64,000 nucleotides of DNA from Octopus vulgaris (taxonomy: Eukaryota). Made by a program: the position numbers and the translations under genes. Positions 21,571 to 24,058 of the stretch are shown here, piece after piece. Location: positions 65,100,001 through 65,164,000 of the forward strand of contig OX597814.1 in the NCBI GenBank assembly GCA_951406725.2, given 5' to 3'. Below the pieces are notes generated by a model. It was not told the origin of the DNA. It was given only the letters and a program-made list of their open reading frames with translations, and ran no database searches. How positions within the stretch are numbered: the first letter of the stretch is position 1; every line of letters begins with the position of its first letter.

Positions 21571-21799
21571 CATGAGAATGACTACCTTCCCTGTAAATGG
21601 TCTTTGTTCAACATAAGTTTATTTGACTTTTGTAAATAAACGATCCAGTGTTTTCTTGTTAAGGGCCTAGCATTATATATCCATATATCCATATATATAT
21701 ATATATATATATATATATATATATATATATATATATATATATTAAAATTATAAGTAAATGAAAGAATGGAGTTGAACGACTAGTTAACAAATATCCTTT

Positions 21800-21884
21800 A
21801 TTCTCGACATATGTTTCGAAGGCTGCATATTCCTAATTCCGAAGGAATAAGGAGTACATTATGCAGATTTCTCATCAGGAAAAT
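21800..21884 (-). ncRNA. Type I hammerhead ribozyme motif (left arm)
   Basis: ATTTTC-CTGATGA-G...C-GAAA-C(ATAT)G-TC-GAGAAT. Stem I is 6 bp, stem II is long (CTGCATA/TATGCAG), stem III palindrome ACATATGT, GUC site. Confidence 0.75.
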
Positions 21885-21970
21885 CAAGGAACTTATGTCG
21901 ACCATGGGCTCCTTGGGAGCGGTCAGCTAAAAGTTTTTTTGTGCATTTTGAGGTCGACATAAGTTCCTTG

Positions 21971-22055
21971 ATTTTTCTGATGAGAAATCTGCATAATGTA
22001 CTCCTTATTCCTTCGGAATTAGGAATATGCAGCCTTCGAAACATATGTCGAGAAT
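21971..22055 (+). ncRNA. Type I hammerhead ribozyme motif (right arm)
   Basis: ATTTTT-CTGATGA-G...C-GAAA-CATATG-TC-GAGAAT; predicted cleavage after C22049. Confidence 0.75.
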
Positions 22056-24058
22056 AATGGATATTTGTTAACTAGTCGTTCAACTCCATTCTTTCATTTA
22101 CTTATAATTTTAAAATAAACATACAAATTTCCGCACGAAGACACGTAGTCTATGCCCTAGGGACGTAGCTTCAACCATGTTCTTTCTGATGTGAATTTGC
22201 TACCCAGGTATCGGTTATCTTTCGAATTATCCTTAATAAGATAATTCATTCAATTACTTATATATATATATATATATATATATATATATATATATATATG
22301 TGTGTGTGTGTGTGTGTGTGTGTGTGTGTGTGTGTGTGTGTGTGTGTGTGTGTGTGTGTGTGTGTGTGTGTGTGTGTGTGTGTGTGTGAGAGAGAGAGTG
22401 TGTGTATGCGTGTGTGCGTGCGTGTGTGCACGCACGTGTAGATTTTGTAGGTACCAATAGAAAAAAAAATTTGTATTGTAAATTTTGCACCGTCAAACTT
22501 CCTCTACGCTTCCCCATGGACGTACACTGCAAATTTGGACATCAATATTACAATTGTATTTCAGCATTAGAACATAAAAACCAGTTTGAATCTATTCCAA
22601 GAAATCTTTTTAAGCGCGAGAGAAATAAAAGATTCGACAGTAGTATGATTAGAAAGATTGAAAAAAAAGTTATTCCAACCTAGATTGCTCATTATATATG
22701 ATCATGGAAATGTATCAAACAAACGAGAGTCTAAAGTATATATGTGATCTTTAGAACCTTTTCTTTGCTTAAGATGTAGTAAAGTAGGTAGAGACTTCGT
22801 TAAAATCGCTGTGTTCAACTGGAGAGACTCCAACTATTTTGCCCCCCAATTAGGTTTGTCAAATAAATTTACAGCAAAAGATAAGAATCGTGTCACTTAT
22901 TTGTTTGATTATTCGTTCATGCCTTGTCTTAAAATATATCACAAATGGCCTTCTAGAATATTCAAGGAACATTCTGAACATTAAAACACATGAACACAGA
23001 AATATTTATATAGATGTACACGTAAATACTCACACACATGCATACACACAAACATACACGCACACACACACACACACACACACATACATATATGGTGGTT
23101 GTCGACTCCTTATGTAGAGTTTGTCCACCACCCCTGCCTATACCTCAGAGCCATAATGGCATCTGGTGTGGCTTTTTAAACCAGACAATGTTCTGAAAAG
23201 ACACCCACATAGGTTGGACCTCTGATTTGGATCACCAAATTAAAAATAGAATGTACCACATGGGCGAAAATATATAGAGAAAAGGATTTGAAAATGCAGA
23301 GGTCTTTTAAAGATGTCTATTGACTTGATCGGTTTCACTTTTTTTAAATGCTTTCAAATTTAAAGTACAAGGCTTTCTGTAGTACATGTGGTGTTAAAAA
23401 TTAGTTAAAACAGATACGGTGATAGAGATTTTGACCTTGATAAGTAAATATAAAATAATAGAATCTTTGACAATGATAAGAAAACGTTAAGGGAAGCTCT
23501 GTGTTTAAACAGTTTACAAAATAGTATTCAAAATAGGTCGTAAAATACGTTCATAAATGTTTATAGGTTCATCAGAAATCATAATTGCTTATAAAGTTTT
23601 AGAGGAATGACCAACCTCTTTTTCTTATTCTCCAGTCTTGTATATGTGTTTTGCAATATAATTATTGTTAGTGAGGTTTTTTTGAGGAGAGAGATTCCTC
23701 TTTAGAGGAATGTCAGCATCCAAGCGTGCTCCGGCTTTATCGTATATATCGATGAACTTTCTGGAATCCTTCCTTTACGTGGTAGAATTAGTGGTTATCA
23801 TTTATTAGGCACCAGCATTATACACATTTTGGAGTTCCACTATTTTGTATAGATGTTTACTTCTCATCGAAATATTTACGTCAACTCAAAAATAATGCAA
23901 TTTTTTCAAGTGCATGAACTAAAAGTCGGAGCAGAACGGGGTAAACTACTTGAATCAACTTGCTATAAAAACAGGTAATAATTTTAGCATGTACATGTTG
24001 TTTGAGAAAGTTTTGAAGAATGCAGTTCGATTTTAACAGTTATTTTTTCAAAGCTATA

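Follow-up and report, generated by a model that had tools for sequence, protein, structure and literature searches.

The closest described counterparts of the octopus locus considered here are Penelope-like elements (PLEs) of the Hydra clade, such as Hydra-1_Obim and Penelope-13_HM. According to the accessible text of Craig et al. 2021 (PMC8557442), these elements possess a single ORF with an RT along with a C-terminal GIY-YIG nuclease, show RWK-type and DKT motifs as well as a CxxC..E..N..CxH end, target (TA)n and carry a type I hammerhead with a short palindromic stem III near their 3' end. Every Hydra row in their published alignment has a CxCX5C linker. The same work reports inverted 5'-truncated PLE copies, whose tail is often confined to a single end, and Penelope-13_HM as bearing hammerheads on both strands, with the other-strand ribozyme residing in such an inverted copy. 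The octopus family shares these traits with the exception of the CxCX5C linker and of RWK, in place of which it has RWL. PLE hammerheads as a group were described as type I motifs with a small palindromic helix III that are dimer-dependent, are located in pLTRs and may form opposite-strand pairs 100-700 bp apart (Cervera and de la Pena 2014, PMC4209133, excerpted text); the octopus motifs are predicted to be of the same kind and are paired likewise.

On the biochemical side, a counterpart is PAc, a Poseidon element protein from the green anole (Frangieh et al. 2024, PMC11167929, text in part). In vitro, both strands of its target are cleaved and extended, and two internal RT start sites define the tail. 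The octopus element shares with it AT-rich targets; two start sites and cutting of both strands may be supposed for it as well, and its protein, like PAc, would act as a dimer, which is itself a prediction for PAc. Finally, non-LTR retrozymes are, in the available part of their description, non-coding, PLE-derived and equipped with a type I hammerhead (bioRxiv 10.64898/2026.07.22.740005), as is the octopus locus.

The window, that is, the whole stretch of DNA that was analysed, comprises 64,000 nucleotides of Octopus vulgaris (contig OX597814.1, positions 65,100,001 to 65,164,000). An initial annotation had recognized a young hairpin-forming inverted repeat with a ribozyme in each arm. The hairpin is there, while the identity of the element had been missed: judged by sequence, each arm represents the 3' end (pLTR) of an abundant young PLE, truncated on its 5' side. 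The following features can be distinguished:

21691..21742, no strand: left (TA)n run of 26 units, read from the sequence, the left half of the microsatellite target
21742..21903, minus strand: left arm, an inverted 5'-truncated element 3' end that ends at the short 3' end
21790..21895, minus strand: left type I hammerhead, of the commonest family form and predicted to be active as a dimer
21903..21904, no strand: back-to-back junction of two truncated 5' ends with a 1-nt overlap
21904..21951, plus strand: the "spacer", 3'UTR sequence of the element itself, immediately upstream of the hammerhead
21904..22258, plus strand: right copy, a 5'-truncated element end that reaches the long 3' end
21960..22065, plus strand: right type I hammerhead, in which stem I bears two private changes (21976 and 22058), predicted to be misfolded
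22107..22258, plus strand: tail from the short to the long 3' end, about 135-150 nt
22224..22247, plus strand: 8-bp hairpin, variable in its loop, a short way ahead of the long 3' end
22260..22387, no strand: right (TA)20 followed by (GT)44, the right half of the microsatellite target

Re-derivation from the sequence reproduced the annotated geometry, i.e. inverted arms of 162 bp (21742-21903 and 21952-22113) that are mismatched at 2 of 162 sites (21879/21976 and 21797/22058) and separated by a gap of 48 bp. The computed stability of the foldback hairpin of about -312 kcal/mol is far beyond chance. The element does not end with the arm: the right copy extends to about 22258, and the left arm stops at a short 3' end, which corresponds to about 22113-22123. 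The spacer results solely from unequal truncation, the right copy having retained 48 nt more than the left one, and the spacer sequence precedes the hammerhead in other family copies, too. The attribute "young" is appropriate for the PLE family; the arm divergence of 1.2% is typical, given a family mean of 1.8% (151 of 8478 sites in 39 pairs). As a side observation, position 21952 is G in the right copy vs T in the family, which lengthens the complementarity of the arms by one base at the junction; this may be accidental or may stem from repair in which the other arm served as template.

It is very unlikely that the foldback is an artefact of the assembly or of long-read foldback formation. 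None of the contigs from four sequencing runs was seen to span the junction, so that this copy rests on one assembly. However, there are two differences between the arms, the inverted arm ends at the short 3' end of the family where it meets its own TA run, and dozens of copies, at more than 40 other loci, show the same back-to-back layout.

The family assignment is based on copies elsewhere in the 2.8-Gb genome, where a search with 21952-22260 yielded 2664 first-look candidates; of 40 candidates scored, 39 were other places that match at 98-99%. Longer copies carry, upstream of the same end, a 3'UTR of roughly 490 nt, a GIY-YIG nuclease and an RT. Three loci (L051, L052 and L057) contain pLTR-ORF-pLTR tandems, which identifies the pLTR as the product of partial tandem copies; in these, the sequence beyond 22258 reaches the ATG start codon of the ORF after about 55 nt. 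The resulting unit of about 3.5 kb exceeds the size of most Hydra-clade elements, for which less than 3 kb is given (PMC8557442, accessible text). The ORF was scored on family copies, the window itself containing no element ORF. Frames with RT motifs and the nuclease signature YIG..R..H..E..N are found in L064 (896 codons) and L053 (713 codons). Pfam detected RVT_1 weakly and below its cut-off in one of three fragments (E 0.0021) and did not name the nuclease domain of the family fragments. The best named homologues are two Argonauta proteins.

Both frames show the replacement of DKG by DKT (as SDKT), and RWL occupies the RWK position (RIRWLAFF or RMRWLAFF vs RMRWKAFF in Hydra-1_Obim). In the family frames, a CCHH motif is absent and CxxCxxE...N...CxH is present. 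Family ends abut (TA)n runs, i.e. the family has a (TA)n insertion preference. The CxCX5C linker is absent from 47 of the 49 GIY-YIG-bearing rows, a count that includes overlapping loci, and one apparent match is out-of-frame junction sequence. At the linker position, all subfamilies seen, and L053 and L064 among the copies, instead have about 150 Asn/Ser-rich residues devoid of Cys, and the 896-codon frame contains just 9 Cys altogether. Among the homologues, 42 of the 43 that could be scored (out of 51) have the linker. Owing to its absence, the family is referred to here as Hydra-derived rather than as a typical member of the clade. Likeness to the published Hydra-clade rows was judged by eye, motif by motif, and the RT tree was a quick, unrooted one confined to two family frames and the best 26 of 51 homologues. 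By eye, the listed hammerhead and 3'UTR of Hydra-1_Obim are unlike those of the octopus family (PMC8557442, listed motifs). No paper on this PLE family was found in the open literature, although it may already be named in Repbase or in subscription papers. Outside Repbase and subscription papers, the open literature likewise yielded no Hydra-type element that lacks the Cys linker.

With its near-perfect inverted arms and short length, and with many similar short foldbacks throughout the genome, the locus could be taken for an independent non-autonomous foldback element, comparable to a MITE or a retrozyme, that spreads as a unit. This is exceedingly improbable and largely refuted by the junctions: each foldback has its own, and that of the window has a single match in the whole genome and is thus unique. 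Moreover, outward-facing pairs range from less than 0.5 kb to several kb and include near-full elements. Retrozymes, as far as their accessible description goes, are tandem repeats on the same strand (bioRxiv 10.64898/2026.07.22.740005), whereas the octopus foldback is a one-off inverted stub.

The long open frames of the window resemble repeats and transposon remnants. The segment at 20100-21570 (plus strand) encodes a broken RT and C-terminal zinc-knuckle/restriction-like nuclease motifs with many stops and frameshifts; these motifs fit a degraded non-LTR element of the R4/Dong type. Judging by their motifs, 24017-24589, 34385-35239 and 54283-54855 are presumably mariner transposase remnants and 47076-47579 is presumably the tail of a LINE RT. 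The annotation had pointed to the R4/Dong-like remnant that precedes the foldback by about 170 bp. A link between the two is not supported by a comparison of 95 loci, in which the only matches were the window's own two and one 78% fragment located 1.3 kb away in L013. On this sequence evidence, the remnant does not travel with the PLE family.

Type I hammerhead cores were found in both arms, one on each strand, as annotated. That of the right arm (plus strand) has C3 at 21977, G12 at 22038 and C17 at 22049; that of the left arm (minus strand) has C3 at 21878 and C17 at 21806. Cleavage is predicted after C17, i.e. after 21806 in the left ribozyme. Stem III consists of 2 bp around an 8-nt palindrome, and stem I of 6 bp, with a distal helix continuing beyond one mismatch. 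Stem II is long: the distance from A9 to G12 amounts to 54 nt in the right arm vs roughly 10-25 nt in the listed Hydra motifs (PMC8557442). Its long, bulged two-part hairpin is unlike helix II of the PLE hammerheads in the excerpted PMC4209133, and within the set listed in PMC8557442 only spike-moss PLE-X motifs have a long helix II as well. No paper on octopus PLE hammerheads beyond PMC8557442 was found in the open literature outside Repbase and subscription papers.

Whether both ribozymes are intact, as had been proposed, depends on the part considered. The cores are, yet it is stem I on the right that carries both differences between the arms as private changes, and the right arm is predicted to misfold. 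The left arm is identical to the form most frequent in the family, which accounts for 37 of 96 extracted rows (a count with overlapping loci in it), and contigs of all four sequencing runs that cover 21976 read C there. In nearest-neighbour predictions, which do not consider tertiary contacts, the left hammerhead fold as a monomer lies 2.2 kcal/mol above the minimum. The right ribozyme incurs a penalty of 7.6 kcal/mol as a monomer and about 9 kcal/mol as a dimer, and one of its private changes is predicted to create a hairpin that buries the core. The earlier idea of assaying an isolated arm as monomer and dimer is sound, inasmuch as the unconstrained two-molecule minimum predicted for the left arm is a hammerhead dimer formed via the palindromic stem III.

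Rfam returned nothing at gathering score in the window, and none of the 12 matches at E values up to 10 was to a hammerhead model, probably as a consequence of the long stem II. Generic hairpin matches, e.g. MIR821 and mir-561, were all below their own cut-offs and were rejected as shape matches. In a comparison of 18 copies across subfamilies, the proposed ribozyme structure was 89.7% paired vs 34-48% when slid, stem III was invariant, and core changes fell mainly on the tolerated N7 and H17. In stem II, a U-A to A-U exchange in 7 rows represents one clear compensatory change, and positions that are mismatched in the young subfamily form G-C pairs in older ones. Since the rows are related and shuffle controls gave mixed results (3 of 500 for the score of pairing and covariation, 48 of 500 for pairs changed on both sides), the support for family-level constraint on the ribozyme is moderate. 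The hammerhead is likely the normal pLTR ribozyme of the element, which would work as a dimer in tandem element transcripts, and in the stub at 21742-22258 it may be regarded as a passenger.

Further hammerheads were encountered along the way. A different one with the same palindromic stem III and an unrelated stem II of about 50 nt occurs in L103 (about 530-650) and in L104 (about 640-750, minus strand), in both cases near copies of related elements. This suggests that more than one PLE family of the genome is characterized by a long stem II. A third hammerhead-like motif is present in three copies in L114, at 5205 (minus), 6016 (plus) and 6998 (minus). Other CUGANGA cores followed by a short hairpin-like sequence and GAAA are located at 29151 (minus), 28674 (minus) and 15157 (plus) and are possibly minimal hammerheads of other PLE families.

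The annotation had further envisioned a kinetic switch. In its stronger form, this would be a selected RNA switch by which the transcribed locus chooses between self-cleavage and long double-stranded RNA. Both cores are intact, the left ribozyme alone is predicted to fold well, and siRNAs have been reported from inverted Penelope copies in Drosophila, which yield double-stranded RNA (PMC3681739, text in part). It was also correctly anticipated that the full hairpin would sequester both hammerheads, in agreement with fold prediction. The order of synthesis, however, argues against a switch: the ribozymes point outward, so that read-through RNA from either side always completes the antisense arm before the ribozyme. 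Folding of the latter would then cost 124 (plus) or 117 (minus) kcal/mol, i.e. about 120 kcal/mol, and 29 nt of the left arm are already predicted to cost the ribozyme 24 kcal/mol. According to this model, folding of one ribozyme would require that the transcript start within the spacer or adjacent to it. Besides the predicted misfolding on the right, no host gene is evident among the 21 long open frames of the window. The junction is unique, arm and spacer lengths vary freely among copies, and 12 of 41 pairs include an arm whose mapped extent falls short of the full ribozyme (one case being borderline and one mis-paired); hence there is no sign of selection for a two-ribozyme hairpin. A selected switch is thus highly unlikely. 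If transcribed, the stub would likely give plain double-stranded RNA with a dead-end 162-bp helix. A>G differences in contigs of the sequencing runs were also present in DNA runs, and a promoter scan built for bacteria, not animals, returned nothing.

More can be learned from the ends of the arms. Among 153 distinct arm ends in 95 loci, 69 were long (about 22258), 60 short (about 22106 and 22123), 15 ran into the ORF and 9 were of other types, with TA runs following the long and short ends. The 52 outward-facing pair rows comprise 42 with one long and one short end, 13 of which stem from a sample biased to long ends, as well as 2 long+long, 1 short+short and 7 with an unclassed end. When sampling was based on the ORF or the hammerhead, 29 of 30 pairs were long+short (binomial p 2.9e-8 against 0.5), with the window included and six older-subfamily rows with unclassed ends omitted. 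The inward-facing L064 and the complex L062 and L063, apparent duplicates of one insertion, were left aside. In 20 further loci of older subfamilies, which are related to the young one, all 9 outward pairs were long+short. In the open literature outside Repbase and subscription papers, no quantification of such pairing was found.

L062 and L063 lie on different contigs, have near-identical flanks and harbor the same complex insertion, representing either a segmental duplication or a retained haplotype. The hairpin at 22224-22247, 10-15 nt before the long 3' end, is kept in all subfamilies looked at and is a possible candidate for a start-site signal. A 13/17 resemblance of the stretches that precede short and long ends (p 2e-4) was picked post hoc, is weaker in older subfamilies and was not used.

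The junctions and arm sequences of the pairs complete the picture. Across 41 pairs, 20 junctions overlap by 1-10 nt, 5 are blunt, 7 have 1-7 extra bases and 9 have at least 22. Minor alleles common to both arms of a pair occur at 43 of 8478 sites (0.51%) vs 0.086% for shuffled partners, a level reached in none of 2000 shuffles (39 pairs; two older-subfamily pairs omitted). The near-strict combination of long and short ends together with shared donor variants suggests coupled priming on both target strands. Alternatively, later gene conversion rather than a common donor could account for the allele sharing. Observations that count against this reading are the long+long, short+short and unclassed rows listed above, as well as the 9 junctions with the longest extra sequence.

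The foldback therefore very probably consists of two 5'-truncated 3' ends of a Hydra-type PLE placed back to back in (TA)n, likely by one insertion in which both target strands served as primers. In such a scenario, the nuclease would nick both strands of the TA run; priming from one nick would begin at the long start site (about 22258), that from the second nick at the short one (about 22113-22123), with a single RNA or two sister RNAs of one donor as template. Both cDNAs would stop early and then be joined through the 1-nt overlap. Conceivably, the general rule is that one protein dimer acts with one donor RNA, strand 1 being primed at the long site and strand 2 at the short site 135-150 nt upstream, such that the outcome is always long+short, and that (TA)n is found without the Cys linker. 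The chances of this extended model being correct are about even. It departs from PAc, whose start sites lie inside the ORF and 30-40 nt apart, whereas those of the octopus family would lie before the ORF; PAc also showed no strand preference in vitro, in contrast to the almost invariable long and short pairs (PMC11167929, text in part). The octopus tail is likewise longer than the 30-40 bp given for PLEs in the accessible part of PMC8557442.

Taken together, the locus is a real but ordinary PLE stub, and a layout with hammerheads on both strands has already been published (PMC8557442 and PMC4209133, as far as accessible). The foldback by itself matters little, while the PLE family constitutes a useful natural data set. 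How PLEs form tandem and inverted structures and choose microsatellites is named as an open question in the available text of PMC8557442. If the extended model holds, thousands of young copies would provide a genome-scale test of PLE inverted-repeat formation. That (TA)n targeting persists despite the loss of the linker speaks against the targeting role proposed for CxCX5C. Hundreds of such stubs would be a ready source of double-stranded RNA, if they are transcribed.
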